A stretch of 64,000 bases of DNA. Origin: Candidatus Levyibacteriota bacterium. Its GTDB lineage: Bacteria; Patescibacteriota; Microgenomatia; Levybacterales; UBA12049. This document shows positions 1 to 54,600 of this stretch, piece by piece. Where the stretch lies: assembly GCA_963722305.1 (NCBI GenBank), contig CAVRKE010000001.1, forward strand, positions 501,549-565,548, in the 5' to 3' direction. Numbering within the stretch: the stretch's first letter is position 1; each line of letters begins with the position of its first letter. The notes below the pieces were generated by a model. The model had not been told where the DNA came from. It did no database searches and was given only the letters and a program-made list of their open reading frames with translations. The position numbers were made by a program, and so were the translations under genes.

Positions 1-1
1 C

Positions 2-331
2 ATTCGGGTAATTGCTGCCAACGCCGACCTTTACGAATCAATCATTAGTACTTTCCAACAGGTAGGCTTTTCGATCCAGTCGCTCTCTCCGGTTACGCTT
101 TACGGCGACGACATCCAGATTGAAAGACTAACCAGCGAGTCGGAAAAAATATTTTCCGGAAAAAATGACTCTTTAAGAAAATACAGCCTGGTGAGTGACA
201 CCGGTAATTTTGTCGCGGCAAAAGAAGAAGAAGTAGTCAAGCAAAAAAATAACATGATGATTATTGCCTCGGTTATAATGTTTGTCATTGCGGGGTTTTT
301 GCTGGTTTTCGCCTTATTTTTCCTCAAATAA
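2..331 (+). CDS. 3' fragment of a hypothetical protein with C-terminal transmembrane anchor; gene runs off the window start
   Basis: Frame 2 is open from position 2 to a TAA stop at 329-331 (...KQKNNMMIIASVIMFVIAGFLLVFALFFLK*). The ORF track instead lists the antisense ORF 100..327. Confidence 0.35.
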   Translation: MRVIAANADLYESIISTFQQVGFSIQSLSPVTLYGDDIQIERLTSESEKIFSGKNDSLRKYSLVSDTGNFVAAKEEEVVKQKNNMMIIASVIMFVIAGFLLVFALFFLK

Positions 332-401
332 AATTAAACCTTTAGTAATTTTAGCTTCATTTTGGGGTAATCCCACCCTGTTGGTACAAAATCGTTAGAA
401 T

Positions 402-656
402 ATGATTATGTACCATTTAAAACAAGTACCTACGGATGCCCAGATTAAAAAGTTTCTCAGAAGAACTGTTTTTGGTAGAAATATCTTCTGTCCAAAGTGC
501 AAATCCTGGAATATTGTTCGCTTTGAAAAAAGATACAGATGTAGACAATGTCAGATTAAGTTCTCGCTGTTTTCCCATACCTGGCTTTGCAATGTGAAGA
601 TTCCTTTGCAGAGATTTATAATGGACCCCATAATCTGCACAGTCACCTTAGACTAA
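402..656 (+). pseudogene. N-terminal fragment (zinc-ribbon region) of IS1595-family transposase, truncated by the IS3 insertion
   Basis: First 73 aa identical to the intact 268-aa transposase at 29423..30229 (CPKC...CRQC), then diverges exactly at the IS3 junction at 617/618. Confidence 0.8.
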
Positions 657-670
657 GATAGAATAGTTCT

Positions 671-967
671 ATGGATCAAAAAATACGCAGAATTCATCCA
701 CCGGCATTTAAAGCCAGAGTTGCTCTGGAGGCAATTAAGGAACAAAAAACAATTGCGGAGCTGTCAAGTATGTACGGTGTACATTCAACCCAAATAACGA
801 AATGGAAACGCCGGGCGTTGGAGATTCTCTCGCAAGGGTTTTCAGAACATCTTATTCAACGGAAACGGGATGACCGTGAGCTGGTACAGGAATTGTATCG
901 GCAAATAGGAAGATTAAAAGTCGAAGTAGACTTTCTTAAAAAAAAGATGGGCATCTTCGACGAGTAG
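671..967 (+). CDS. IS3-family transposase OrfA (HTH)
   Basis: 98-aa HTH protein of IS3/IS911 OrfA type. The A8G slippery run (A at 938-945, G at 946) near its 3' end fits a -1 frameshift into OrfB. Confidence 0.85.
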   Translation: MDQKIRRIHPPAFKARVALEAIKEQKTIAELSSMYGVHSTQITKWKRRALEILSQGFSEHLIQRKRDDRELVQELYRQIGRLKVEVDFLKKKMGIFDE

Positions 968-1070
968 GGATATCCTTACTCCCGGAGAAATTGCTCTGCA
1001 CATTAACAAAACAGAAAGCGTATTACCAAAGAGTATACGGGCTGATCTTCTGGATATTTCCAGATCAAGT

Positions 1071-1808
1071 TTGTACTATCAGCCAAGACCGGTTAAACCC
1101 GAGGCACTCATTTTAATGAACAGAATTGATGAGGTATATACTGCCCACCCTTTTTATGGTTCAAGACGTATGGCAAAAGAGGTTGGTGTTAACAGAAAAC
1201 AGGCACAACGCCTGATGCGTGAAATGGGCTATGAGGCATTGTATCCGAAGCCTAATTTGAGTAAACCCGATAAACAACACATGTTCTATCCGTATTTACT
1301 CAAAGGAGTAGTTGCAGGATATCCAAATCATATCTGGGGCACAGATATTACGTATATTCGGATGAAACATGGGTTTGTATATTTAACTGCCTTTCTTGAT
1401 TGGTTTACCAGATTTGTTGTTTCCTGGAAGCTCTCAATTACCCTTGAAACAGACTTTTGTTTTGATGCTGCAACTGAAGCAATTGAGAAATTCGGAAGAC
1501 CAACCATTATTAATGAAGATCAGGGATCACAAAATACCGATCATCTGATGACAGATCTCTGGGAAAATCACAATGTCAAAATCAGCATGGACTCACGGGG
1601 ACGGGCACTGGACAATATCTTCACCGAGAGGTTATGGAGGAGTGTTAAATATGAAGAGGTATACTTAAAAGAATACGCTACTGTTTTGGAAGCAAAAGAA
1701 AACATTGAAAACTATTTTTACTTTTACAATTATGAAAGAAAACACCAATCGCTTAATTACAGAACACCGGCTGAAATATATTTTGGAAAGGAGGAAAACT
1801 TAGTCTAA
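1071..1808 (+). CDS. IS3-family transposase OrfB (DDE integrase core, rve)
   Basis: HIWGTDITYI...NEDQGSQNTDH...YNYERKHQSLNYRTPAEIY is a typical IS3 DDE catalytic core. The frame is open upstream of the listed Met, consistent with an OrfAB fusion. Confidence 0.85.
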   Translation: MYYQPRPVKPEALILMNRIDEVYTAHPFYGSRRMAKEVGVNRKQAQRLMREMGYEALYPKPNLSKPDKQHMFYPYLLKGVVAGYPNHIWGTDITYIRMKHGFVYLTAFLDWFTRFVVSWKLSITLETDFCFDAATEAIEKFGRPTIINEDQGSQNTDHLMTDLWENHNVKISMDSRGRALDNIFTERLWRSVKYEEVYLKEYATVLEAKENIENYFYFYNYERKHQSLNYRTPAEIYFGKEENLV

Positions 1809-1882
1809 GTTTAGCCGTTTTACTGTGTTGACAATGGGGTCCACCTTAATTTTGGTTAATTCTCTGGTGCTGGACAAAACAA

Positions 1883-2443
1883 ATGCCGGTTAAACAGACT
1901 GAAGATCTAACTTCTTTGTCTGAGAAGGGAGTCAGACATTACTTTGACTTGTTCAGAGAACAATTACCAAGAGATCAGAGGCTTCTAGAGCATATTGTCC
2001 AGCTTGATGAGGCCTACTTTGGCAGATTTGGTAATACCGCACTTCTCATGGGAAAGGAGAGAGGAACCAGAAAGCTTGCTTATCAAATCCTCTCCTCTGA
2101 TGCCCCAGCGAAGAAAGATGCAATTGATTTTGTTAGAACTTACGTTAAACCAGAGTCTCAACTAAATACAGATGGCTCTACTATTTACAAAAATATTGAT
2201 AAGTATTATCCTCTATTCCATATGACAGACATTCACAAGAAATTTGAGTTTACCAACACCTCTGAAATTGAAGGAATGTTTGGCGTTTTAAGGACTTTTA
2301 TCCGGAGGATGTACCACCATGTCAGTGAAGAAAAGCTTGAAGAATATGTCTGTGAATTTTACTGCAGATTTTCCAGACCGGAAATGTTTAAATCTCCTTA
2401 CCATTACTTGCAAAACACGCTACATGCTTTACCAACAGGGTAG
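1883..2443 (+). pseudogene. C-terminal fragment of the interrupted IS1595-family transposase
   Basis: Identical to residues ~83-268 of the intact transposase at 29423..30229. Confidence 0.8.
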
Positions 2444-2503
2444 GAGAACCCTCATTTTGCTTCTTGACAAGGCATATCTATTATGTCAATAATTAATTAA
2501 TAC

Positions 2504-2953
2504 ATGAAATCTGCTGCCCAACAAAAAGGTTTTACATTAATCGAACTCCTCGTCGTCATCGGAATCCTTGCAATCCTCTTTTCAATTGTTTTAATTGCTA
2601 TCAATCCAGCCAGGCAATTTAACCAAGCTAATGACACAAAAAGAAGAAGCGATACGCTGCAGATTTTGAACTCAATTCATCAGTATGCAGCTGAGCACTC
2701 CGGAAATCTTCCGGCACCGTTAGCAACACCATATACAGCCGCCGATGTGGCTAATACAGGCGCCGACCTCTGCGCACTGATAATGCCAACTTATATTTCG
2801 GCTCTTCCGCAAGATCCGGCTAATAACAATGGTGTACCAATCACATCCTGCACAACCTACGACACAGGCTATCAAGTAGCAGTTGATGCTCAAGGAAGAG
2901 TTACAGTTAGCGCACCGGATGCTAAACTAGGCACAGTGTCGGTAACCAGATAA
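2504..2953 (+). CDS. type IV pilin-like protein (prepilin N-terminal cleavage/methylation domain)
   Basis: N-terminus KGFTLIELLVVIGILAILFSIVLIAINP is a class III signal peptide with a conserved Glu at +5. Confidence 0.8.
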   Translation: MKSAAQQKGFTLIELLVVIGILAILFSIVLIAINPARQFNQANDTKRRSDTLQILNSIHQYAAEHSGNLPAPLATPYTAADVANTGADLCALIMPTYISALPQDPANNNGVPITSCTTYDTGYQVAVDAQGRVTVSAPDAKLGTVSVTR

Positions 2954-2954
2954 T

Positions 2955-3401
2955 ATGAAAAGTCAAAAAGGTTTTACATTAATCGAACTCCTCGTCGTCA
3001 TCGGAATACTTGCAATCCTCTTTTCAATTGTTTTAATTGCTATCAATCCAGCCAGGCAATTTAACCAAGCTAATGACACAAAAAGAAGAAGCGATACGCT
3101 GCAGATTTTGAACTCAATTCATCAGTATGCGGCTGAGCATTCCGGAAATCTACCAACAGGTTTAACAGCCGGGATGGCCGCAGTCGATGTTTCTGATACA
3201 ACCGGAGATGCTAATATCTGTGCGCAGATAATGCCAACTTACATTTCGGCTCTTCCGCAAGATCCGCAAAACAACAGTGGAGCACCAATCACAACCTGCA
3301 CCGGCTATGACACCGGCTATCAGGTTTCAGTAGATACACAGGGAAGAGTTACAGTTAGCGCACCGGATGCTAAACTAGGCACAGTGTCGGTAACCAGATA
3401 A
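2955..3401 (+). CDS. type IV pilin-like protein, tandem paralog
   Basis: Same prepilin N-terminus. The first ~190 bp and last ~60 bp are nearly identical at DNA level to 2504..2953; the central part differs. Confidence 0.8.
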   Translation: MKSQKGFTLIELLVVIGILAILFSIVLIAINPARQFNQANDTKRRSDTLQILNSIHQYAAEHSGNLPTGLTAGMAAVDVSDTTGDANICAQIMPTYISALPQDPQNNSGAPITTCTGYDTGYQVSVDTQGRVTVSAPDAKLGTVSVTR

Positions 3402-3423
3402 ATTCACGATAAATATTGAATGA

Positions 3424-3444
3424 ACCCCTGCAAAGGGGTTTTTT
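3424..3444 (+). terminator. Rho-independent terminator after the pilin pair
   Basis: ACCCCT-GCAA-AGGGGT hairpin followed by TTTTTT. Confidence 0.7.
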
Positions 3445-3463
3445 ATTGCCTACGTGTATTAGC

Positions 3464-3493
3464 TTGACATCTAATCTTCCCATTACTTATAAT
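3464..3493 (+). promoter_or_regulatory. consensus sigma70-type promoter (TTGACA-18-TATAAT)
   Basis: TTGACA at 3464-3469, 18-nt spacer, TATAAT at 3488-3493. The ATG at 3504 lies ~4 nt from the predicted transcription start, implying a leaderless or near-leaderless mRNA. Confidence 0.5.
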
Positions 3494-3503
3494 CCGCTTT
3501 ATT

Positions 3504-4046
3504 ATGCCATCGATAGCAAGACGAGGACACAGAGTAGGGCCTGAACGAGGCGGAACAACAGATGTTGGTGGAGCACCCGCAACTGCTACGAAAGAAGCGG
3601 GTGGAACTATGGTTGTTCCGGACATTGAACATTCTATTTTTGGATCCACCCCGCAACAGTTTGCGGCAATGTTTGAGCAAGAATACAGCGAAATCTATTT
3701 TGAAGATATACCATTAACGCTTCGTTCTAAGGACGGCAGTAAAATAAAGCTTAAACCCGGAGTTTTTGTTACAACTACAGATTCTAAAGGAGAACCAATC
3801 CAACAATGTTTAATCGACCGGGGAATTATCATAAATATTCTTTTAATGGACGCTGTTCAACCAGACGGCACACAGATTGAAAGGAGTTTTCCTAATGTCG
3901 AGGGACGTAAAACATTATTAACACTTGCAGGGTTTTGTAGCGAAAAAGATCATATGCCTACTATTACTATCGGCAGTGCTGCTCATAACAGGCTGAAACA
4001 AGCTATACAGCAGTATCGCCAAGAAAGATCTGGTCAGCATCCATAA
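3504..4046 (+). CDS. hypothetical protein
   Basis: 180-aa ORF with no recognisable motif. A consensus promoter directly upstream supports expression and the 3504 start. Confidence 0.45.
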   Translation: MPSIARRGHRVGPERGGTTDVGGAPATATKEAGGTMVVPDIEHSIFGSTPQQFAAMFEQEYSEIYFEDIPLTLRSKDGSKIKLKPGVFVTTTDSKGEPIQQCLIDRGIIINILLMDAVQPDGTQIERSFPNVEGRKTLLTLAGFCSEKDHMPTITIGSAAHNRLKQAIQQYRQERSGQHP

Positions 4047-4060
4047 CATTTAAACATTAA

Positions 4061-5836
4061 TTACCTTCCAAACCAAGCATCTAGAATCTTTTTGGCGATC
4101 GGCGCGGCCACGTTACTGCCTTCTCCGCTGTTTTCCGAAAGGACCGTGATAACAATTTGCGGATTGTAAGCCGGCGCAAACAGCGTCACCCAGGCATGGG
4201 CTAAGGTATTTTCTCCACCGTTTTCCGCCGTGCCGGTTTTGCAGGCTAAAACCACCTGGCGCATATCGGCCGAGCCCGAAGAAGGGTCAACCCCTAGAAT
4301 ATTTTTCCCGTCGATGGGAAGCTTTGGATTCTTAACCATGTAATTAAACAAGGGCCAAGCCACACCCCCGGGACTGCAGGCTTCAACCATCCCCTCCTTA
4401 ATTAAATCCGCCGAATGGTTGTCTAAAAGATTGACGCTGAGAAGTTGGGAACCAAAATCCTTCATTAAGTGCGGCTTATACAAATTGCCGTTATTGGCAA
4501 TCGCCTGCGTCCAGGAATTAACCTGTAAAGGCGTGGTTAAGAGGTAACCCTGGCCAATTCCGTAGTGATAGGTATCCCCCAAGTACCATTGTTCGCCGAT
4601 ATTTTTGAGTTTCCATTCCGGCGTCGGCACTAATCCCGGTGCTTCTCCCGGCAAATCAATCCCCAAGTCTTCCCCCAACCCGAATTTCTTGGCCATTGCC
4701 GAAACTTTATCAACCCCCACTTTTTCCGCCAGTTGATAAAAGAAAATATCGTTGGAACGCTTGATGCCTTTGACAATGTTGACCATGCCGTCGGTTCCAC
4801 CGTAACCGGTGTAATACCAGTTGGAAAAAGAAAATGCACCGACCGTCAAAACGCCGGTATCTTCGATTTGCCAGTTTTCGTCAATGATTTTATCAGCCAG
4901 GCCCGCCGAAGCGACTATTAATTTAAAGGTTGAACCCGGTGGATAGACTCCTGAAATTGCCCGATTTAAAAGCGGCTGGTTTTGCGAATCGGAAAGAATA
5001 TCCGATAAGCTTAAATATGAACTGGCAGTCGAGATTTTATAATCCTGTCGCATCGTAAACAGGTTAGGGTCAAACGAAGGCTTGGAAACCATAGCCAGTA
5101 TTTCACCGTTAGGAGTTGAAACTATGGCCGCGCCCTTTTTGACGTCTTTCATGGCTGTAAAGACCGCCTCCTGAAGCTTTGCATCTAAAGTCAAAACGAT
5201 ATCTTGTCCGGCAACCGGGTCATTCTGGCCAAGCACCCTGACCAAATTGCCCCTCGCATCAACTTCGAAAAGCTCCTTCCCGTCGGTCCCTTTTAATAAA
5301 GACTCGTATTCCTGCTCGATTCCGGATTGTCCGACTAAATCTGATGGCGAGTATCCGGCGTATTGAGGATCCGACAGTTGCTCTTTGGAAATCTGGCCGA
5401 TATAGCCCAAAACGTGGGCGAAGGCTTCTTTGTACGGATAGCTTCTTAAAGAATCCACTTCCAAATTATTTTTGCCCGCAGCAATTGCCTGCAAAGCTTC
5501 ATCCTGATTTAAAATTACCGTTTTACCGTTAACAATTTCCCTTACTCCGGGCGCGTTAAAAACTAAAGGCGTACCGTTTCGGTCAAAAATTATTCCTCTT
5601 GGCGCATGGATGGTAACGGTTTTGGTGCGGTTACTGTCCGAAAGGTAGCGGTAATAATAACCTTCCAAGACCTGCAGAAAAAATAAGCGGAAAAAAAGAA
5701 TTGAAAATAACACCAGCAAAGCCAAAGGCAGCAAATAATTCCTGTTGGAATGCCCACCACCCTCGTAATCCCATTTTCTTCTTTTGTGGTCGCCCTTAGT
5801 AATATAATCGCCAAAAGCGATACCCGGTTTATTCAT
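4061..5836 (-). CDS. mrdA: penicillin-binding protein 2 (peptidoglycan D,D-transpeptidase)
   Basis: N-terminal transmembrane helix plus the transpeptidase motifs GSTFK (SxxK), SND (SxN) and KTGTAE (KTG). Adjacent to mreCD. Confidence 0.9.
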   Translation of the reverse strand: MNKPGIAFGDYITKGDHKRRKWDYEGGGHSNRNYLLPLALLVLFSILFFRLFFLQVLEGYYYRYLSDSNRTKTVTIHAPRGIIFDRNGTPLVFNAPGVREIVNGKTVILNQDEALQAIAAGKNNLEVDSLRSYPYKEAFAHVLGYIGQISKEQLSDPQYAGYSPSDLVGQSGIEQEYESLLKGTDGKELFEVDARGNLVRVLGQNDPVAGQDIVLTLDAKLQEAVFTAMKDVKKGAAIVSTPNGEILAMVSKPSFDPNLFTMRQDYKISTASSYLSLSDILSDSQNQPLLNRAISGVYPPGSTFKLIVASAGLADKIIDENWQIEDTGVLTVGAFSFSNWYYTGYGGTDGMVNIVKGIKRSNDIFFYQLAEKVGVDKVSAMAKKFGLGEDLGIDLPGEAPGLVPTPEWKLKNIGEQWYLGDTYHYGIGQGYLLTTPLQVNSWTQAIANNGNLYKPHLMKDFGSQLLSVNLLDNHSADLIKEGMVEACSPGGVAWPLFNYMVKNPKLPIDGKNILGVDPSSGSADMRQVVLACKTGTAENGGENTLAHAWVTLFAPAYNPQIVITVLSENSGEGSNVAAPIAKKILDAWFGR

Positions 5837-5856
5837 AAATGTTGTTGTACTCCAAT

Positions 5857-5954
5857 TTCTAATTTAAAATTTCTAATTTTTAATCAAGTCTAAATGTCTT
5901 AATTTTGAGCATTTTGGGCATTCATTGGAAATTAAGAATTAAAAATTGAAAATT
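5857..5954. repeat. ~100-bp AT-rich intergenic repeat, copy A, immediately upstream of mrdA
   Basis: ~85-90% identical to 11541..11644. Contains AATTTCTAATTT and GAAAATTGAAAATT units. Confidence 0.8.
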
Positions 5955-6360
5955 ATCCTTTTATATTCGCTCTCTGAACCACCTTAAACATTATTAATCC
6001 GATTATTGAACTTACAACCGCTTGAACAATAATTAAGTCTGTATCCCCCACTAGGAAAAGATAAATAAAACTTCCTGCAAGTATAGTAAGGAAAACAAAA
6101 GTATTGGTTTCGATCTCAAATTTACTTTGGTAAAGCAGAACCAAGAATAAAGATAGCACAAAAAAGGCGCTGGATAAGCCAAGTGTCCGAAAGCCGACCA
6201 AGTCTAAAAGAATCCCGAAGATAAAGCCGAAACCAAACAGCCAATTTTCTTTTGACAGCACCAGCAAAACGAGTAACGCCAAAAAAACCAAGGGAAGAGT
6301 GGTCAGGCTTGCTTCTAGAATTAGGGCGATTGATAGTAAAATTAGCGCCAAAATCTTCAT
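5953..6360 (-). CDS. mreD: rod shape-determining protein MreD-like membrane protein
   Basis: 135-aa polytopic membrane protein immediately downstream of and overlapping mreC. Confidence 0.6.
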   Translation of the reverse strand: MKILALILLSIALILEASLTTLPLVFLALLVLLVLSKENWLFGFGFIFGILLDLVGFRTLGLSSAFFVLSLFLVLLYQSKFEIETNTFVFLTILAGSFIYLFLVGDTDLIIVQAVVSSIIGLIMFKVVQRANIKG

Positions 6361-7348: not shown

Positions 7349-8191
7349 ATGGCAAAAAAATCTGTTACGGAGGTTTTAAAATATTTTCAGTTTTCCGATA
7401 AAAATAAAGTTCTAAAAAAACTGCAGACAATTATTGCCGGCGGAAAAAATAATTTGCATTTACTTTTTGATTTTGACCGGACCTTAACTGTTGGTAAAAA
7501 CAACACCGGTGAAGACTTTACTTCGTGGAATATCTTAACAAAACTTTTGCCTCCTAAGGCTTTTGCCAAACAGTACAAACTTTATCAAAAATATCGACCA
7601 ATAGAGGCATCGGGCAAATTAAGTGCCAAAGATGCAACAAGTTGGGCCAATCAGGTGTTGAAAATTATTGTTGAAAACCAGGTCAATTTGTTGGAAATGG
7701 AAAAAGACTTTTTGCAAAACACCAGCATTAGATCTCATGCTAAAAACATTTTTGATGCTTGTAATATTCTCGGAATTCCCATTGTAATTGTCTCGGCCGG
7801 AATAAAAAATGTTATTGATATTTGGTCAAAAATATTTCAGGTATCCCCTGCTTTAGTTTTAGCTGTCAAGCTAATCGCTGACACAAACGGAAAAATTATC
7901 GACTGGGACAAAAATATTATCCATGTAGGAAATAAAGGAGAACAAGGAAACGAGGAGTTGGATAAAATCAAAAATCAAAGACCGAACATTATTGCCGTTG
8001 GGGACGCCATTGAAGACGCGGATATGGTTAAGGACGATGAAAATGTCCTGCGGATAAGAATTAACGACCCAAGGATAGATGAGAAATTAAGTGAAGCAGA
8101 ACGTCTGAAGAAAACTTTTGCCAAGTTTGATTTAATGATTGACTCCGGCACTCTGGAGCCGGTTTTGAAGATTTTGGAATTATTGGAATAA
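7349..8191 (+). CDS. HAD-superfamily hydrolase (pyrimidine 5'-nucleotidase-like)
   Basis: Motif I LLFDFDRTLT (DxDxT) and motif IV GDAIEDADM. Confidence 0.55.
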   Translation: MAKKSVTEVLKYFQFSDKNKVLKKLQTIIAGGKNNLHLLFDFDRTLTVGKNNTGEDFTSWNILTKLLPPKAFAKQYKLYQKYRPIEASGKLSAKDATSWANQVLKIIVENQVNLLEMEKDFLQNTSIRSHAKNIFDACNILGIPIVIVSAGIKNVIDIWSKIFQVSPALVLAVKLIADTNGKIIDWDKNIIHVGNKGEQGNEELDKIKNQRPNIIAVGDAIEDADMVKDDENVLRIRINDPRIDEKLSEAERLKKTFAKFDLMIDSGTLEPVLKILELLE

Positions 8192-11531: not shown

Positions 11532-11540
11532 AGATAAGAA

Positions 11541-11644
11541 CTTCTAATTTAAAATTTCTAATTTCTAATCAAGTCCAAATGACTTAATTTTAAAATTGAA
11601 GCATTTAAACATTCATTGAAAATTAAAAATTGAGAATTGAAAAT
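11541..11644. repeat. ~100-bp AT-rich intergenic repeat, copy B, immediately upstream of mreB
   Basis: Aligns base-for-base with 5857..5954 apart from a few substitutions and indels. Confidence 0.8.
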
Positions 11645-18422: not shown

Positions 18423-18535
18423 AATCTTTGTATTATAACTAAAATGTGCGGAATTTTCAATTCGAAATTTTAAATTTAAAATTATATTCTTAAAAATTGA
18501 TTGAAAATTAGAAATTAAAAACTTATAATTGCCTA

Positions 18536-19183
18536 ATGGACTTAATCGGTATCATCATTATTCTTCCAATATTAATATACAGCGCAATTTTACATGAGAT
18601 TATGCATGGCTTAGTTGCCGAACGCTTAGGCGATCCAACAGCCCGACTTATGGGTAGAATTACCCTTAATCCAATACCACATATCGACCCTTTTATGAGC
18701 ATACTTCTCCCTTTAATCCTATCTCTATCTCCAACTCATGTAATTATTGGTGGCGCGAAGCCTGTTCCTGTTGATCCATTTAACTTCCGCGAACCAAAGA
18801 AGGATATGGCCATAGTCTCTTTAGCCGGACCAGGAACAAACTTTTTGATTGCAATTGTTTTCGGAATTATTTGCCGAGTGGTCTTCCCAGGATTGACTTT
18901 AGACGGGGTATTAAACAGCGGAATATTAGGCGCTATTTTAGGAACAATTGTTTATATAAATATTATCTTGGCCATTTTTAACCTAATTCCCATTCCCCTG
19001 CTTGACGGTTCCAAAATCTTCGCGCTGGTGTTGCCGGACAGAGAAGCGGCAATGTATATGTCCATCGGCAGTTTTGGAATTTTGATAATTTTCTTCCTGC
19101 TACTTTTCCCTATCGGCGGATTTTCCCTGGGGAGTTTAATGTTTAACCTCCTGACCTTTGCGCAACATTTACTGGGGCTTTAA
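18536..19183 (+). CDS. site-2 protease family (peptidase M50) membrane zinc metalloprotease
   Basis: HEIMHG (HExxH) in a transmembrane helix, [10 protein letters not shown] motif, multiple transmembrane segments. Confidence 0.7.
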
Positions 19184-20164
19184 ATATCTGCTACTTTGTC
19201 TTGTCCTTGCTCTAACCTGATCTAAAACCTCTGGCTCAACGGCAACTTTTTCAAGAACTCCCATTGCTCTCATCCCATCTTCTTCGTTAAGGGCTATTTC
19301 CAGCGGTGACTGCTTAAAAAGTAAAGCCAGTAAAGCAATCCTCGCTAAAGAAGTTGTTCTGGTTGCTCCACTTTCTATTGCCCGATAACCTCCAACTCCT
19401 TTTCTAAATCCCAAGAATTTTCCAACTGTGCCTTTGGATAGATTCATCGCCTGTCGTAAAGCCCTGATATTTCCTTTTCTAACAGGCAACATCTCCATTA
19501 ATTCACGATCAAATTCAGCACCTTCGTAAAAATGAACACCGGGAATATGGTCTAAATCAAGAGGACTATTACTAAAAACGCTGTGATCTATTTGTTTGTG
19601 CGAATAATCACTTCTGCTACTTTGTCTTGTCCTTGCTCTAACCTGATCTAAAACCTCTGGCTCAACGGCAATTTTACCAAGAACATCCATTGCTCTCATC
19701 CCATCTTCTTCGTTAAGGGCTATTTCCAGCGGTGACTGCTTAAAAAGTAAAGCCAGTAAAGCAATCCTCGCTAAAGAAGTTGTTCTGGTTGCTCCACTTT
19801 CTATTTTTTGGTAACCTTTTTGCCCAAGCCCCAAAAATTCTCCTACTTTTTCTTCAGATAAATTTACGGCTAGACGTAAAGCCCTGATATTTCCTTCTCT
19901 AACAGGCAACATCTCCATTAATTCACGATCAAATTCAGCACCGTCGTAAAAATGAACACCGGGAATATGGTCTAAATCAAGAGGACTATGATAAGCATAG
20001 GTGTGACCTCTTTCTCTGCGTGTGGGCTCTGGTTGAGCAAGTACTCTTCTTGACGCTATGGAATAATCTGCTCCAAATATTGTTGCAAGAGCATTTGTTC
20101 TTGGCGGCAAATCTGGTCCAAGAATATGTGATCCTAAGTGTTCACCACCTGATTTTACCATCAT
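19169..20164 (-). CDS. XRE-type HTH protein with an internal tandem duplication (two HTH modules)
   Basis: Two ~142-aa repeats each carry an HTH (NIRALR.A.NLS...FLG...IESGATRTTSLARIALLALLF). Overlaps the 3' end of the M50 gene by 15 bp. Confidence 0.55.
   Translation of the reverse strand: MMVKSGGEHLGSHILGPDLPPRTNALATIFGADYSIASRRVLAQPEPTRRERGHTYAYHSPLDLDHIPGVHFYDGAEFDRELMEMLPVREGNIRALRLAVNLSEEKVGEFLGLGQKGYQKIESGATRTTSLARIALLALLFKQSPLEIALNEEDGMRAMDVLGKIAVEPEVLDQVRARTRQSSRSDYSHKQIDHSVFSNSPLDLDHIPGVHFYEGAEFDRELMEMLPVRKGNIRALRQAMNLSKGTVGKFLGFRKGVGGYRAIESGATRTTSLARIALLALLFKQSPLEIALNEEDGMRAMGVLEKVAVEPEVLDQVRARTRQSSRYLKPQ
19188..20039. repeat. in-frame tandem direct repeat, 2 x 426 bp, inside the HTH gene
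   Basis: Units 19188-19613 and 19614-20039 are nearly identical except for a ~70-bp central segment. Confidence 0.85.
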
Positions 20165-21696: not shown

Positions 21697-21737
21697 TTAA
21701 GGTGGACCCCATTGTCAACACAGTAAAACGGCTAAAC

Positions 21738-22475
21738 TTAGACTAAGTTTTCCTCCTTTCCAAAATATATTTCAGCCGGTGTTCTGTAATTAAGCGATTG
21801 GTGTTTTCTTTCATAATTGTAAAAGTAAAAATAGTTTTCAATGTTTTCTTTTGCTTCCAAAACAGTAGCGTATTCTTTTAAGTATACCTCTTCATATTTA
21901 ACACTCCTCCATAACCTCTCGGTGAAGATATTGTCCAGTGCCCGTCCCCGTGAGTCCATGCTGATTTTGACATTGTGATTTTCCCAGAGATCTGTCATCA
22001 GATGATCGGTATTTTGTGATCCCTGATCTTCATTAATAATGGTTGGTCTTCCGAATTTCTCAATTGCTTCAGTTGCAGCATCAAAACAAAAGTCTGTTTC
22101 AAGGGTAATTGAGAGCTTCCAGGAAACAACAAATCTGGTAAACCAATCAAGAAAGGCAGTTAAATATACAAACCCATGTTTCATCCGAATATACGTAATA
22201 TCTGTGCCCCAGATATGATTTGGATATCCTGCAACTACTCCTTTGAGTAAATACGGATAGAACATGTGTTGTTTATCGGGTTTACTCAAATTAGGCTTCG
22301 GATACAATGCCTCATAGCCCATTTCACGCATCAGGCGTTGTGCCTGTTTTCTGTTAACACCAACCTCTTTTGCCATACGTCTTGAACCATAAAAAGGGTG
22401 GGCAGTATATACCTCATCAATTCTGTTCATTAAAATGAGTGCCTCGGGTTTAACCGGTCTTGGCTGATAGTACAA
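21738..22475 (-). CDS. IS3-family transposase OrfB
   Basis: Identical 245-aa product to 1071..1808. Confidence 0.85.
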   Translation of the reverse strand: MYYQPRPVKPEALILMNRIDEVYTAHPFYGSRRMAKEVGVNRKQAQRLMREMGYEALYPKPNLSKPDKQHMFYPYLLKGVVAGYPNHIWGTDITYIRMKHGFVYLTAFLDWFTRFVVSWKLSITLETDFCFDAATEAIEKFGRPTIINEDQGSQNTDHLMTDLWENHNVKISMDSRGRALDNIFTERLWRSVKYEEVYLKEYATVLEAKENIENYFYFYNYERKHQSLNYRTPAEIYFGKEENLV

Positions 22476-22578
22476 ACTTGATCTGGAAATATCCAGAAGA
22501 TCAGCCCGTATACTCTTTGGTAATACGCTTTCTGTTTTGTTAATGTGCAGAGCAATTTCTCCGGGAGTAAGGATATCC

Positions 22579-22875
22579 CTACTCGTCGAAGATGCCCATC
22601 TTTTTTTTAAGAAAGTCTACTTCGACTTTTAATCTTCCTATTTGCCGATACAATTCCTGTACCAGCTCACGGTCATCCCGTTTCCGTTGAATAAGATGTT
22701 CTGAAAACCCTTGCGAGAGAATCTCCAACGCCCGGCGTTTCCATTTCGTTATTTGGGTTGAATGTACACCGTACATACTTGACAGCTCCGCAATTGTTTT
22801 TTGTTCCTTAATTGCCTCCAGAGCAACTCTGGCTTTAAATGCCGGTGGATGAATTCTGCGTATTTTTTGATCCAT
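22579..22875 (-). CDS. IS3-family transposase OrfA
   Basis: Identical 98-aa product to 671..967. Confidence 0.85.
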   Translation of the reverse strand: MDQKIRRIHPPAFKARVALEAIKEQKTIAELSSMYGVHSTQITKWKRRALEILSQGFSEHLIQRKRDDRELVQELYRQIGRLKVEVDFLKKKMGIFDE

Positions 22876-22928
22876 AGAACTATTCTATCTTAGTCTAAGG
22901 TGACTGTGCAGATTATGGGGTCCATTAT

Positions 22929-23074
22929 ACTTTTGTAAGAAATTCTCTCCCCAAAAATTCTCCCCCTCTAAAATCAGGGTCATTGCTAGGATAAGCATAT
23001 CTACCCTTAAACGTCCTTAAAGGTTCTCCGATGTACATTGCTGCTTCACTATTTTTTCCAACCAGTTCTGCCAT
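22929..23074 (-). pseudogene. N-terminal part of the IS3-interrupted alpha/beta-hydrolase gene
   Basis: ATG at 23074 (MAELVGKNSEAAMYIGEPLRTFKGRYAYPSNDPDFRGGEFLGREFLTKV). Removing the IS plus one duplication copy joins this in frame to VQLAIHPNVSRRIIINVPSIDGS... at 21696. Confidence 0.7.
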
Positions 23075-24554: not shown

Positions 24555-24730
24555 TCCCAGAAGTATCTCGCAAATTTTTATTGCAGGGTTGCTCAGATTC
24601 GAACTGAGAAAAGCAGTTTTGGAGACTGCTGTGATAACCATTTCACCACAACCCTTTGAAAAATTTGCTTAGAACTTCGGGATCCCGTAGATGTAAGCTT
24701 TTTCTCCGAAAAAGCAACATACTACTGGGA
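24555..24730 (-). other. 176-nt intervening sequence inside the split tRNA gene; contains a complete tRNA-Trp
   Basis: Its flanks are mutually complementary (TCCCAG/CTGGGA, GAAGT/ACTTC, GCAAATTTTT/AAAAATTTGC). The 5' part has two hairpins (GCTTTTTC-GGA-GAAAAAGC and CGGGA/TCCCG). Confidence 0.55.
24584..24655 (-). tRNA. tRNA-Trp (anticodon CCA), 72 nt
   Basis: AGGGTTG-TG-GTGA-AATGGTTA-TCAC-A-GCAGT-CTCCAAA-ACTGC-TTTT-CTCAG-TTCGAAT-CTGAG-CAACCCT-G. All stems are Watson-Crick, with U33 and a canonical T-loop. Confidence 0.85.
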
Positions 24731-24763
24731 GAGACCTCAGTTATACCATTTAACTACTGGCCT
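24731..24763 (-). tRNA. 5' exon of the split tRNA-Trp(CCA)-like gene: acceptor 5' strand, D-arm, anticodon stem 5' strand plus CTC
   Basis: AGGCCAG-TA-GTTA-AATGGTA-TAAC-T-GAGGT-CTC. D-stem 4/4, anticodon stem GAGGT pairs ACCTC of the 3' exon, U8/A14/G18G19 present. Confidence 0.55.
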
Positions 24764-24818
24764 ATGACGTTATTATACTGGGAATGGACAAATCTAGCAA
24801 TTGAGGAAGAAACAGGGG

Positions 24819-24995
24819 TTATTTCAGTTTTTCGTTTTCTTTGTGGTCGGTAACTTTTCTACAATGCCGGCAATATTTTTTGAGCAGCAATTTTGCCTCT
24901 GTATTCAGCTTATTTCTGGTCGTGACGTAATTTCTGTTTTTACAAACAGTGCAAACGAGCCCCAAAACTACCCTATGTTCTCCCTTTTTTGCCAT
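24819..24995 (-). CDS. rpmG: 50S ribosomal protein L33 (58 aa)
   Basis: MAKKGEHRVVLGLVCTVCKNRNYVTTRNKLNTEAKLLLKKYCRHCRKVTDHKENEKLK has a C-x2-C ... C-x2-C zinc ribbon and L33 spacing. Below the ORF-track length cutoff. Confidence 0.8.
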   Translation of the reverse strand: MAKKGEHRVVLGLVCTVCKNRNYVTTRNKLNTEAKLLLKKYCRHCRKVTDHKENEKLK

Positions 24996-25045
24996 AAACG
25001 GTATTTTAGCAGACTTTCTTCGTAATTTGAAGAGCGAGTATTTTG

Positions 25046-25117
25046 AGCCGAGAGCGGGAATCGGACCCGCGACCTAGTCATTACCAATGACTTGCTCTGC
25101 CACTGAGCCATCTCGGC
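25046..25117 (-). tRNA. tRNA-Thr (anticodon GGT)
   Basis: GCCGAGA acceptor, anticodon arm AGTCA-TTGGTAA-TGACT, T-loop GGTCCGATTCC. Confidence 0.85.
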
Positions 25118-25144
25118 GTGCTATAACAATGAGCCTGTCAAATG

Positions 25145-25228
25145 TGCTGGGTGAGGGACTCGAACCCCCGCAGACCTTACGGTCATCTGGTCTACAGCCA
25201 GAGGCGATTGCCGCTACGCGAACCCAGC
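25145..25228 (-). tRNA. tRNA-Tyr (anticodon GTA), long variable arm
   Basis: GCTGGGT acceptor, anticodon arm TCTGG-CTGTAGA-CCAGA, 13-nt variable arm, T-loop GGTTCGAGTCC. Confidence 0.85.
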
Positions 25229-25251
25229 GTGTTATTATTTTAGCAGATTTG

Positions 25252-25323
25252 AGCCGAAGGCGAGATTCGGACTCGCGACTTGCTGTTTACAAAACAGCTA
25301 CTCTACCACTGAGTTACTTCGGC
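25252..25323 (-). tRNA. tRNA-Thr (anticodon TGT)
   Basis: GCCGAAG acceptor, anticodon arm GCTGT-TTTGTAA-ACAGC, T-loop GAGTCCGAATC. Confidence 0.85.
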
Positions 25324-29323: not shown

Positions 29324-29414
29324 GAATAATCTTGGGAATGGTTTCGCATTCGATTGAAGGAAAAGAACTGTTAAAACTTTTGGAAGAAATCAGAAAACTT
29401 TTCGAGACAAATTC

Positions 29415-30266
29415 GGGTTCTCCTACCCTGTTGGTAAAGCATGTAGCGTGTTTTGCAAGTAATGGTAAGGAGATTTAAACATTTCCGGTCTGGAAAATCT
29501 GCAGTAAAATTCACAGACATATTCTTCAAGCTTTTCTTCACTGACATGGTGGTACATCCTCCGGATAAAAGTCCTTAAAACGCCAAACATTCCTTCAATT
29601 TCAGAGGTGTTGGTAAACTCAAATTTCTTGTGAATGTCTGTCATATGGAATAGAGGATAATACTTATCAATATTTTTGTAAATAGTAGAGCCATCTGTAT
29701 TTAGTTGAGACTCTGGTTTAACGTAAGTTCTAACAAAATCAATTGCATCTTTCTTCGCTGGGGCATCAGAGGAGAGGATTTGATAAGCAAGCTTTCTGGT
29801 TCCTCTCTCCTTTCCCATGAGAAGTGCGGTATTACCAAATCTGCCAAAGTAGGCCTCATCAAGCTGGACAATATGCTCTAGAAGCCTCTGATCTCTTGGT
29901 AATTGTTCTCTGAACAAGTCAAAGTAATGTCTGACTCCCTTCTCAGACAAAGAAGTTAGATCTTCAGTCTGTTTAACCGGCATTTGTTTTGTCCAGCACC
30001 AGAGAATTAACCAAAATCTCTGCAAAGGAATCTTCACATTGCAAAGCCAGGTATGGGAAAACAGCGAGAACTTAATCTGACATTGTCTACATCTGTATCT
30101 TTTTTCAAAGCGAACAATATTCCAGGATTTGCACTTTGGACAGAAGATATTTCTACCAAAAACAGTTCTTCTGAGAAACTTTTTAATCTGGGCATCCGTA
30201 GGTACTTGTTTTAAATGGTACATAATCATATTCTAACGATTTTGTACCAACAGGGTGGGATTACCC
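29415..30266 (-). mobile_element. IS1595-family insertion sequence, intact copy B (852 bp)
   Basis: Same terminal inverted repeats as copy A. Perfect 8-bp target-site duplication ACAAATTC at 29407-29414 and 30267-30274. Confidence 0.9.
29423..30229 (-). CDS. IS1595-family transposase (zinc-ribbon plus DDE)
   Basis: 268-aa product. N-terminal CPKC...CRQC, then a DDE_Tnp_IS1595-like body. Confidence 0.85.
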   Translation of the reverse strand: MIMYHLKQVPTDAQIKKFLRRTVFGRNIFCPKCKSWNIVRFEKRYRCRQCQIKFSLFSHTWLCNVKIPLQRFWLILWCWTKQMPVKQTEDLTSLSEKGVRHYFDLFREQLPRDQRLLEHIVQLDEAYFGRFGNTALLMGKERGTRKLAYQILSSDAPAKKDAIDFVRTYVKPESQLNTDGSTIYKNIDKYYPLFHMTDIHKKFEFTNTSEIEGMFGVLRTFIRRMYHHVSEEKLEEYVCEFYCRFSRPEMFKSPYHYLQNTLHALPTG

Positions 30267-30461
30267 ACAAATTCCTTATTGAAAGGCTAAATTTGGGCTG
30301 ATATAATTTAAATTTATGAATAGACGTGAAAGACAAAGAATAAGACAAAAACAAATGCCAGTAACATCCCCATCAGTTTTGTGCCCGCCGGAGAAAGCGG
30401 TTCTTTGTGGCGCACTTAAAGGTAAATGTGACTTGGTAAGAGTAGGCCAAACTGCTGCAGT

Positions 30462-48006: not shown

Positions 48007-48131
48007 AAGTTGCTCGCTAACGCTTGCGCCAATTTCTAATTTCTAATTCTTGATTTCTAAAGAAAACTCAATGCCTAATTACTAATTAGCTCTGAAGTAT
48101 AATTCTGAAGACAGACATCACCCTCTATTAT

Positions 48132-51622: not shown

Positions 51623-54600
51623 TTATTGAGTCGGTGTTATGGTTGGAGTTGAAGATTCAACCTGATTTAGAATTGATTGGAACGCCGCCGACTGGGTCGC
51701 TTGCGGTTCGGGTGTGGGCACTACCGGCTCCAGTCCCGCAGTTTTGGCATCCTGGACTGAAAGCGCCACCCAGGAAAAGTTAATATCTTCGGGTGCGGGT
51801 TTATTCAGCCGAATTGTAAATCCCTGGGTAGTTCTATCGGTAATCACATAAGAAAGATTACCGTTAAGGATGGCATCTTCCAAAGCTTTCTGGGCCACCT
51901 GGTCATTTATTTTGTCAAGGGCAATACTGGCAGTGACAACCGGTGTGTCGGCATACTCGTTGTCAAAAGTCACCGAAACAGTATCCTCTCCCTGCTTAAT
52001 CACCGCAAATCCGGCCGTATCGCTGTTGAAAGTCGGAGTTGAATTAAATCTGACGTTACCCTTAAACACCACGTCGTTCATAAAGTAACTAAAGCCGGAA
52101 ACGAGGAAATTATTGGTCGTCAGACTATCAAGAACATTCAAAGCGCCCTGGATAAGGCCGTTACCCGCAACATTTAAGTCGGCCGAAATAGTGGCCAAAC
52201 CGTTAACGTTCAAATCGGAAAGGTTGAGGGTTGAGGGAAGGGTTGTTGTCGCCGATGGCGTGGCTGTTGCCAATTCTCCGCTTTGAGTGGCATCGGAAAG
52301 AACCGCTACGCTATTAGATAGTGCTGAAATTTGGTTGGTCAGTATTTCCAAACCCTCAATATGGTCGGCCCTGATGGTTTTGGCAGTAATTAAGTCGGCG
52401 ACAATTTCCGGGCTGATTACCTCGCCGGCCGCCACTGTTCCGGTGAAAACTTCCGAAGAATTAAACGCTGCCGAACCGGCGTCCTTAAGGCTTTGCAGGT
52501 ATACCAAAGTATTTTGGTCACCGCTGGAAATTTGGTTCATGTAGGAATCAAGGCCGGTATCCCCATAGATATCGGCAAACCCCGCACTGGTCGAAGCCAC
52601 AAAGTTTTCGTCCGCCATTGCCAGCTCGACACTTTCGCCGTTATAGCTGGTTAAGTTAACAAAGACCGTGATAGTTCCGCATTGGGTGGTTGACAAACTG
52701 CCTGCCCCTTGGGCCGGACAATCGGAAACTTCGGTTGGGTCGGTCGGGTCAAAATCCTCAATAGCAGTTCCCAACACTCTGCCGGCCACCGTGGCTTTCA
52801 TCGCGTAACCGGGAATTGAAGACGATGTCAGGTAATCACCGGAATGGATTGGCCCGTTTTCGGTGGAAACCAGCACGGGCACGCGTCCCACAAGGGCGAT
52901 GGGATAAGAATCCGGTGTGTAAGCACCCGCTACGAATCCCGGGTCTGTTGAAACCACTCCCATGATGTTACTTTGGTATTGCATAGTTGACTGAATCACA
53001 TTTTGTGCATTAAATTGGTCGCCGACCACCACTTCTCCCGGATTTAAAGTTTGGGTGGAGGTGTAATTTTCCGCTAAATCCGCCCCGCCCGAGTTCCACG
53101 CCCCGCCTGCGGCTGTGTAAGCCTGTCCGTCGGCGGCAAACCTAAAGGCATTCATTCCTTCACTGGTTAAAGTCAAAATATTCGGGTCTGTGGTATTTGC
53201 CAGTCTCCAGTACTGCAAAGTTGGCGTCTGTATCTGCCTATAATAATCAACTGAACCTCCGCTATCTATTCCTGACCAAACTCTCTCTTTCTCATAAGGC
53301 ATATTTGGCATTGTTCCAGTAAGGGTAAACTTAAACTGCGCCCAGGTGTCGCCGGCATTTGGATTAATCAATCCACCGGCTTTTTCGACATCATTCCAGT
53401 TGGTGGCCGTCATGGCGGCCAAACTTGAACCGGTTCTTGATTGGACTCCGATTGCCCCCTGCCCGACATTTTTCCAGTCGAGCGAAGTATTGGCAGTAAG
53501 GTTATTGGAATTTATTGGTTCAGTCACATACGTCCCCTGTAAATTCCAGCCGGCATCAATGATCATTGTATTGGAACTGCCTCCTACAATGACTACAAAT
53601 TTTCCATCCGGTCTTTGAAAAACATTTGTGCCCGCAGCTAAATTGCTAGGCGAAGGTAACGTCGGGCCTGCCCAAGTTCCTCCTACAACCTGTACAGAAG
53701 GGTCCACAATTGTTGTCGAGGTTGCCCCGCCGTTTGCCCACAGTATTTTTCCATCCGGCAAAGGAATTGTAAATGCGCCCGCTCCGGCATTGGCAGACAA
53801 AACTTCACCGAGCGCGGCGGTAAACGTACCAAGTCTTGCATCATAAAGATAAATCGTAGTCGCGGCTGTTCCTCTGGTTTGCAGCCAGTTGCCGTTGGAA
53901 ATTTGCACAGTGGTTGCGTTTGCCCCGTATGCAGCAGTGGTAGCAGGGCCAACAACAAAAGAGTTGCTTGATTCTTCATAGATATCGGTTACCGCACTGG
54001 TCCCTAAAAAGACAAGGTATTTTCCGTCAGGCCTTTTAATGCTGTAGGCTCCAGCGGTGACCGTTGATGTAGTGGCCGGACCGGCTGTAAATGAATTTAA
54101 GAACGGGTCGTAAATGTTGGTATTGGCTGTTGCACCTCCCAAAATTATCAGAAATCTTCCATCAGAGCGCAAAATAGCATGAGCGCCTGCGCCAATTGCG
54201 GCTGTTACGCTAGGTCCGGCGAAAAAAATATTTCTGACCGGATCATAAATATCTGTAAGCTGAGAGGCGCCTATAAACAACATAAACTGCCCGTTGGGTA
54301 AAGGTATCGAGAATGAACCGGTATTCGGATTGCTCGCCCCAACCGTTGTCGGACCGACAGTGAACAAACCGGTAGTCGAATCATACATTCTGGTTGCGTT
54401 TGAATTACCAGCTAAGATAATCAAAAACTTACCGTTTGGCAACTGTAGAGTGTGGGACCCTGTTCCAGCAGTGCCGCCCAAGTCCGCCGAGGCAGATGCA
54501 ACAATAATATCGGCATTAGAACTTGGCACGCTGCCATTTTCAAACGTTGCCAAAGTAACGGAATCGGAATCGCCAGTAACTGTTCCGTTAAAAACCGCGC

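Follow-up and report, generated by a model that had tools for sequence, protein, structure and literature searches.

Pilin genes W1 and W2

We analyzed a 64-kb stretch of contig CAVRKE010000001.1 from a Candidatus Levyibacteriota bacterium (the window), which carries a tandem pair of type IV pilin genes, here called W1 and W2. Both genes are complete open reading frames (ORFs), and both products score above the Pfam gathering score for the N_methyl family (PF07963). The two prepilins have the features of class III signal peptides, namely Gly(-1), Phe(+1) and Glu(+5) followed by a hydrophobic segment, with cleavage sites (marked by a slash) at MKSAAQQKG/FTLIELLVVIGILAIL in W1 and MKSQKG/FTLIE in W2. 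A single nucleotide (nt) separates the W1 stop codon from the W2 start codon (...AGA TAA T ATG AAA...). The W2 protein is identical to database protein P0006. W1 and W2 share 83 % amino-acid identity and differ in 27 alignment columns, a count that comprises residue differences together with the indels of the leader and of the loop (including a 2-residue loop indel).

A codon-by-codon alignment of the two genes, the coordinates of which were then verified, gave rise to the segment map in Table 1. One loop stretch unique to W1 reads ...APLATPYTAADVANTGADLCALIMPTYISALPQDPANNNGVPITSCTTYDTGYQVAVDAQGR. The central near-identical block, which lies between the two divergent blocks of the middle, could be used as an internal recombination point.

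An initial annotation of this DNA had described two type IV pilin paralogs in tandem, 1 nt apart, with near-identical 5' ends, identical 60-bp 3' ends and a divergent middle of ~200 bp. The tandem pair and the 3' identity, which includes the stop codon, are borne out by the alignment. The near-identity at the 5' end applies to the tract that begins within the leader, but the leader peptides themselves differ. The middle does contain divergent loop and β-strand blocks, but it is a mosaic rather than a uniformly divergent cassette.

Table 1. Segments of the W1/W2 pilin pair and flanking features, in window coordinates (aa, amino acids; pS, proportion of synonymous sites that differ; dN and dS, nonsynonymous and synonymous divergence per site)
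Feature	Position	Strand	Details
Membrane-protein gene that closes the upstream type IV pilus cluster, 3' end	1-330	+	matches C-terminus of the 236-aa/227-aa ORFs directly upstream of the pilin in L081/L082
IS1595-family element, interrupted by IS3-family element (617-1849)	365-2451	+	Pfam DDE_Tnp_IS1595, Zn_ribbon_IS1595, rve, HTH_Tnp_1
Sigma-70-like promoter of the pilin operon	2464-2493	+	TTGACA, 18-nt spacer, AATAAT; 11/12 matches (promoter scan)
Pilin gene W1, 149-aa prepilin	2504-2953	+	complete ORF; PF07963 E = 1.3e-8; type-1 leader MKSAAQQKG/FTLIE
Pilin gene W2, 148-aa prepilin	2955-3401	+	complete ORF; PF07963 E = 1.1e-9; type-2 leader MKSQKG/FTLIE
Leader	W1 from 2504, W2 from 2955	+	MKSAAQQKG vs MKSQKG; 9-nt (3-codon) indel and TCT/AGT Ser codon switch
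5' gene-conversion tract	W1 2522-2688 = W2 2964-3130	+	167 nt, 1 mismatch; pS 0.03
Transition	W1 2689-2713, W2 3131-3155	+	4 mismatches, all synonymous
Hypervariable αβ-loop block	W1 2714-2779 (APLATPYTAADVANTGADLCAL), W2 3156-3227 (TGLTAGMAAVDVSDTTGDANICAQ)	+	W2 2 codons longer, 6-nt indel
Central near-identical block (IMPTYISALPQDP)	W1 2780-2818 = W2 3228-3266	+	39 nt, 1 mismatch; pS 0.11
Moderately divergent block, second Cys and first β-strand	W1 2819-2893, W2 3267-3341	+	20/75 nt differ; dN 0.19, dS 1.18
3' gene-conversion tract, last two β-strands and stop codon	W1 2894-2953 = W2 3342-3401	+	60 nt, 0 mismatches; pS 0.00
Intrinsic terminator of the two-gene operon	3422-3447	+	8-bp stem then T-run (terminator scan)

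Synonymous differences are clustered in the core

We used the Nei-Gojobori method to estimate dS and dN between W1 and W2 for each region. The 5' tract gave a dS of 0.03 and a dN of 0, and both values are 0 in the 3' tract. The middle gave a dS of 0.80 and a dN of 0.21 (pS 0.48), and the loop block inside it a dS of 1.03 and a dN of 0.56. Where W1 and W2 encode the same amino acid, their codons differ synonymously at 1 of 76 positions in the flanks and at 19 of 47 core positions (Fisher p = 1e-8), and the longest run of such codons without any synonymous difference spans 40 codons (permutation p = 0.003). The differences between W1 and W2 are therefore clustered in the core, far beyond chance.

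Eight related pilin genes on independent metagenome contigs (L081-L086, L091 and L092) served as an orthologue control. Several of these orthologues encode N-terminal 60 residues exactly as in W1 and W2, yet 33-77 % of the synonymous sites of the N-terminal segment differ between lineages (pS 0.33-0.77). For the C-terminal segment the corresponding range is 28-93 % (pS 0.28-0.93), and several positions encoded by the 3' tract vary in amino acid across the pilin family. The pS of the W1/W2 middle falls within the between-lineage range. Because the orthologues share the N-terminal protein but not the DNA that encodes it, the identity of the W1 and W2 ends is not due to constraint at the nucleotide level, and it thus reflects recent common ancestry of the tracts. 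Uniform divergence and pure protein constraint, considered as explanations for the pattern, are both ruled out by the synonymous-site analysis and by orthologues with the same protein and different DNA. Gene conversion, which the initial annotation had offered as one source of the flank/core pattern, is supported by these comparisons beyond what protein conservation alone would provide.

The duplication is old and the identical tracts are recent

A scan of metagenomes for the DNA pattern gave 3 loci. A second pilin gene with the short type-2 leader (MK[SNT]QKGF) and 1-nt spacing is also present in L091, in L092 and in the contig that encodes P0005, with the junction AGATAAT/ATGAAA read in L091 and L092 and the spacing for P0005 taken from a gene table (the P0005 and P0041 contigs, from JGI, are represented by gene tables only). 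The type-1 leader (MK[ST]AA[QH]QKGF) is found on first genes and on single genes. Between the window and these three contigs, 40-70 % of synonymous sites differ. Since lineages at such synonymous distances have the tandem layout and the leader types in common, the duplication predates the split of the lineages; and since an old duplication carries identical flanks within one genome, the flanks must have been homogenized later, by gene conversion between direct repeats. Within the tracts, W1 and W2 are closer to each other than orthologues of different lineages are, although the duplication is older than the lineage split.

The identical patches occupy different positions in other pairs. In the L091 pair the central block and a 39-nt stretch are identical and the extreme 3' end is not, whereas the L092 pair is nearly identical at the 3' end. 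The more distant L087 pair is identical over the first ~100 nt and in one 3' patch (run test p = 0.001). This variation in position fits repeated, independent, short conversion events, and conversion in these pairs appears to be episodic, short-tract and lineage-specific.

In the proteins of close relatives, W1-type residues and W2-type residues are combined in patches. P0005 combines a type-2 leader with the first half of a type-2 loop and the second half of a type-1 loop; the sequence TGLTAGMAA, which forms the first half of the W2 loop, is identical in P0005, which comes from another sample. Single-gene loci, L085 among them, have a type-1 leader and a W2-type loop insertion, a combination expected from unequal crossing-over that collapses a pair.

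Two further tandem pairs, L088 (5001-5919) and L089 (5001-5914), gave a pS of 0.51-0.55 and a pN (the corresponding proportion for nonsynonymous sites) of 0.02-0.03. Their proteins are near-identical and differ mainly in the cleaved leader peptide. Near-identical proteins despite a pS of ~0.5 indicate long-term purifying selection on two working genes, not a diversity generator. Concerted evolution, considered for these pairs too, is not supported, as clustered tracts are absent and the within-pair pS is close to the between-genome pS.

Variable residues map to the αβ-loop and first-strand region

We built an AlphaFold2 model of W1 with a 26-sequence family alignment. The model is confident (predicted local distance difference test score 87.6) and has the shape of a lollipop, in which a helix at residues 12-64 precedes a β-sheet; the strands are at 77-83, 120-127, 133-137 and 145-148. 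The first of them is short and lies, like a small helix at Cys90, in the loop region. The sequence profile matches the N-terminal parts of Streptococcus sanguinis PilE1 (8pfb), geopilin and GspG, and in a Foldseek comparison of the model with the PDB no match reached significance.

The 5' conversion tract covers the last leader residues and nearly all of the α1 helix, which is the polymerization core. Residues that differ between W1 and W2 are found in the αβ-loop and around the second Cys and first strand, and they fall in the most variable columns of the family (mean entropy 1.90 vs 0.61 bits; p = 1e-11). At the protein level, the entire pilin family shows conserved ends around a variable middle. 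The αβ-loop and first-strand regions line the outside of the filament in type IV pili of solved structure. By analogy, the variable part of a major pilin such as W1 or W2 would lie on the lateral surface of the filament, and the description of this part as tip-exposed in the initial annotation is inaccurate for a major pilin.

Operon organization and expression signals

The gene that ends at the start of the window may, from its position and its C-terminal transmembrane segment, encode a PilN/PilO-like protein. In L088 and L089 the homologous pilin pair closes a cluster that includes PilC (T2SSF), several N_methyl minor pilins and a 640-690-aa protein. Together, the gene at 1-330 and the L088 and L089 clusters indicate that the pilins are encoded with type IV pilus assembly genes.

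The W1 ATG begins 10 nt past the -10 box of the operon promoter, and the TTGACA...AATAAT/ACAATAAT arrangement is kept upstream of the pilin in L084, L085 and L086. W2 has no promoter of its own. A hairpin homologous to the terminator follows the pilin or pilins in L084, L085, L086, L091 and L092. From these signals, W1 and W2 are probably both expressed, the W1 mRNA is probably leaderless or short-leader, and ribosomes that terminate on W1 most likely reinitiate across the 1-nt junction to translate W2.

In many genes of the window (for example those that start at 7349, 10384(-), 18536, 20164(-), 24466(-), 44385(-) and 3504), a TATAAT box precedes the ATG by only 5-12 nt and a Shine-Dalgarno sequence is absent, which points to mRNAs that are mostly leaderless or have very short leaders. 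The last of these genes, a 180-aa ORF (3504-4046, + strand) without a Pfam match, follows the pilin terminator and has its own perfect promoter (TTGACA-18-TATAAT at 3464-3493). A promoter-like site is present at the matching position in L085, L091 and L092. In L085 and in the P0041 contig a + strand gene is called after the pilin, and its correspondence to the 180-aa ORF is positional only.

Insertion sequences and other features of the window

The IS1595-family insertion sequence (IS) upstream of the pilin genes is flanked by an 8-bp target-site duplication (TCATTTTG, at 357-364 and 2452-2459). Only 4 nt separate the element from the pilin -35 box downstream of it, and the empty site is visible in L084. 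The insertion left the core pilin promoter intact and placed the operon 2.1 kb from the rest of the pilus cluster. Second IS copies, 99-100 % identical to the first and inverted relative to them, are located 20-27 kb away (21697-22929 and 29409-30272). These are an intact IS1595 copy (with target-site duplication GAATTTGT) and a second IS3 copy. The high identity of the copies indicates recent transposition, and their inverted orientation creates the potential for inversion of a ~27-kb segment, pilin operon included.

The window has one more recent tandem duplication, in this case within a single reading frame: a 331-aa ORF (19169-20164, - strand) is built from a ~140-aa unit that is present twice in tandem; the nucleotide repeats are 95 % identical between 19187-19391 and 19613-19817 and 85 % identical between 19410-19598 and 19830-20018. 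Judged from its sequence, this ORF may have helix-turn-helix character. A 3017-aa ORF (51623-60676, - strand) contains at least 10 tandem 51-nt (17-aa) repeats with 63-71 % identity at 56928-57577, as well as a 265-nt internal repeat (56250-56514 and 58179-58443), and its product is possibly a large surface protein. An AT-rich intergenic motif of ~53 nt (AATTTCTAATTTAAAATTTCTAATTT...) occurs in both orientations (5854-5906, 11539-11591, 18478-18531 (inverted) and 48031-48083) and could be a regulatory or terminator-type element. The window also contains a cluster of four tRNA genes (24584-25323, - strand).

Proposed origin of the pair and alternative explanations

We consider it probable that W1 and W2 derive from an old tandem duplication of a major pilin gene, that their ends were recently homogenized by gene conversion, and that both genes are functional, with a mixed pilus as a likely consequence. 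On this proposal, the duplicated genes lie at the end of the type IV pilus cluster of a Microgenomates-type bacterium of the Candidate Phyla Radiation (CPR), and transcription from the single promoter to the single terminator would yield one short-leader mRNA for both intact genes. Homologous recombination between the direct repeats, in the form of non-reciprocal gene conversion, would recently have overwritten both ends of one copy, namely the 167-nt α1 stretch and the last 60 nt, and the leader codons, the loop and the first-strand region would have kept the older divergence. Because α1 is identical, the same prepilin peptidase and assembly machine would be expected to act on both subunits. 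The likeliest outcome, by analogy with S. sanguinis PilE1/PilE2, would be a heteropolymeric filament in which the two subunits form a mosaic lateral surface. RecA-type recombination within the identical blocks of 167, 39 and 60 nt could lead to further conversion, to hybrid genes and to changes in copy number, and over evolutionary time short-tract conversion and unequal crossing-over would shuffle loop segments and occasionally fuse the pair into one hybrid. An effect on host attachment or DNA uptake, as put forward in the initial annotation, would be plausible.

The initial annotation had interpreted conserved flanks around a variable core as the architecture of gene conversion or of antigenic or adhesive variation. 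In a programmed system of the latter kind, as in Neisseria pilE/pilS, directed and frequent conversion would swap the core and thereby switch the pilus surface or host specificity within a population. The mosaics of W1-type and W2-type residues among relatives and the different conversion patches of different lineages also agree with such a program. However, W1 and W2 are both complete, with start codons and leaders, and they share one promoter and one terminator, so that neither gene is silent. Conversion here homogenized the constant parts and did not exchange the variable part; two donors would offer only a tiny repertoire, and the sister lineages L088 and L089 keep two near-identical proteins. 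The additional silent cassettes that the initial annotation had proposed as a check were not found: a six-frame motif scan, tblastn, blastn (word size 7) and a repeat search detected no other pilin cassettes, full or partial, in the 64-kb window, the part of the contig that was searched. Likewise, no G-quadruplex motif, defined as a run of four G3+ tracts, is present on either strand of positions 1-6000. A dedicated variation system of this kind is accordingly quite unlikely at this locus. We give similarly little credence to a minimal two-cassette module, in which frequent conversion seeded in the 5', central and 3' blocks would reshuffle loop and strand segments between two expressed pilins and occasionally fuse them. 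If such a module did exist, populations of an obligate episymbiont would have a standing pool of mosaic pilus surfaces for host switching or phage evasion, and pilin variation would need no silent loci.

The pair could instead have arisen by a recent whole-gene duplication, after which the middle of one copy was replaced by a divergent allele from a related strain, for example after DNA uptake. The pS of about 0.5 in the middle resembles between-lineage divergence, the TGLTAGMAA segment of the W2 loop is shared with P0005, and shuffling of alleles among lineages is evident. This explanation is nevertheless unlikely, because the junction, the 1-nt spacing and the type-2 leader that L091, L092 and the P0005 contig have in common at 40-70 % synonymous divergence mean that the duplication is not young, and because the TCT/AGT codon switch and the 9-nt indel of the leader, both located 5' of the identical tract, are old. 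W2 might also be a dosage duplicate without functional differentiation, in which case the pair would serve to make more pilin, the middle would drift at a weakly constrained surface and conversion would be incidental. The strong purifying selection on the near-identical L088 and L089 pairs, the frequency of tandem pilin paralogues in Patescibacteria and a variable-block dN/dS below 1 all agree with dosage, but the 27 differing columns, with their 2-residue loop indel, are concentrated in the most exposed and family-variable columns, and each leader type keeps to its own gene position in different lineages, which suggests that the copies are not interchangeable; we regard dosage alone as improbable. 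An assembly artefact, in which strain alleles were stitched into a false tandem or flank differences were erased by repeat collapse, has to be considered for a metagenome-derived contig with tracts of 167 and 60 nt, which are of the order of short-read and k-mer lengths. Such an artefact is very improbable: three assemblies made independently show the tandem layout, the junction itself could be read in L091 and L092, and the contig resolves 100 % identical 1.2-kb IS copies, suggesting long reads or curation. In addition, an independent Logan short-read contig (run ERR11594402) stops some 30 nt into the 3' repeat, at the point where two continuations diverge, as would be expected if the reads contain the repeat.

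Several observations weigh against an old, recently converted pair with diversified surfaces. The dN/dS of the variable block is about 0.5 and not >1, and the middle may simply have escaped conversion so far, with no selection to keep it different. The L088 and L089 pairs have no clustered identical tracts, so conversion and surface diversification are not general to such pairs, and the conserved function of the pairs could be simple dosage. The mosaic relatives are located on short metagenome contigs, where assembly chimeras of paralogues are possible. The analysis covered a 64-kb window of a 608-kb contig, and co-transcription, coupled translation and co-assembly of W1 and W2 are inferences.

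Comparison with known pilin pairs

The PilE1 and PilE2 pilins of S. sanguinis are encoded by adjacent genes of one pil locus. They are two full-length major pilins of a heteropolymeric pilus; the subunits enter the filament stochastically, and one of the two, whichever it is, suffices for piliation (Anger et al. 2023, PMC10628169). The window is similar in having two adjacent, full-length major-pilin genes of high identity that differ mainly in surface loops. It differs in that the C-terminal tails of W1 and W2 are identical, in that the organism is a CPR bacterium, and in the DNA-level evidence of recent partial gene conversion, which is specific to the W1/W2 locus; co-assembly of W1 and W2 is, for its part, what we infer from the comparison.

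In the Neisseria pilE/pilS system, one expressed gene is accompanied by many promoterless, 5'-truncated silent cassettes and a G-quadruplex-forming sequence, and directed transfer of the variable part takes place at high frequency. The likeness of W1/W2 to pilE-pilS of N. gonorrhoeae and N. meningitidis consists in a type IV major pilin, conversion between copies, and conserved segments that flank surface-exposed variable ones. In contrast to pilE-pilS, W1 and W2 are both complete and predicted to be co-transcribed, and the converted tracts are the constant ends.

Gene conversion between tandem paralogues is known from the lipoprotein cluster (lpl) of Staphylococcus aureus, where the conserved unit runs from the 3' end of an ORF across the junction into the 5' end of the ORF that follows (Tsuru & Kobayashi 2008, PMC2568036). 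W1 and W2 resemble the lpl genes in being tandem paralogues with a unit of this kind. The differences are that the lpl genes belong to another protein family and are present in more copies, that the W1/W2 junction is 1 nt, and that the leader codons inside the W1/W2 unit were not homogenized.

In the cultivated CPR bacterium TM7x (Saccharibacteria), PilA1 and PilA2 are small, highly expressed major pilins with roles in host binding, competition and twitching, and they are encoded at separate loci and form two distinct pili (thick and thin) with separate machineries (PMC11623550). W1 and W2 are, unlike these, a tandem near-identical pair. Adjacent paralogues in which the second copy modulates the function of the first instead of duplicating it (for example transformation efficiency, or pilus number and position) are pilAI/pilAII of Pseudomonas stutzeri, pilA1/pilA2 of Xylella fastidiosa and pilA1/pilA2 of Synechocystis. 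These three pairs are much more divergent overall than W1 and W2, and we know of no report of a conversion-tract mosaic for any of them.

A scan of a genome collection with the family alignment, which used the generic GFTLIELL/VVIGILA motifs as patterns, gave only distant pilins among the matches listed. Among these matches, 80 distantly related loci contained 40 adjacent pairs of pilin-like ORFs, several of them 50-80 % identical, and one locus had four consecutive pilins, with adjacent pairs 52-61 % identical. Tandem pilin paralogues are common in Patescibacteria, and the tandem, partly converted pair is a new example in the CPR group, not a new kind of system. Conversion between W1 and W2 is real but fairly ordinary evolution of a pilin pair.

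Implications for CPR pili

Type IV pili are the best-documented organelle of attachment and motility in CPR/Patescibacteria, and the surface of the major pilin is what hosts and phages see. The practical value of the locus is modest, but the pair deserves attention in metatranscriptomes, metaproteomes and long-read population data, and it serves as a warning that the repeats of such loci can cause breaks or chimeras when short reads are assembled. The locus provides a clean and quantifiable CPR example of side-by-side major-pilin genes whose assembly-critical parts would be kept in register by conversion, with the exposed loops free to differ. If both subunits enter one filament, the Microgenomates would join S. 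sanguinis as a case of a heteropolymeric pilus.

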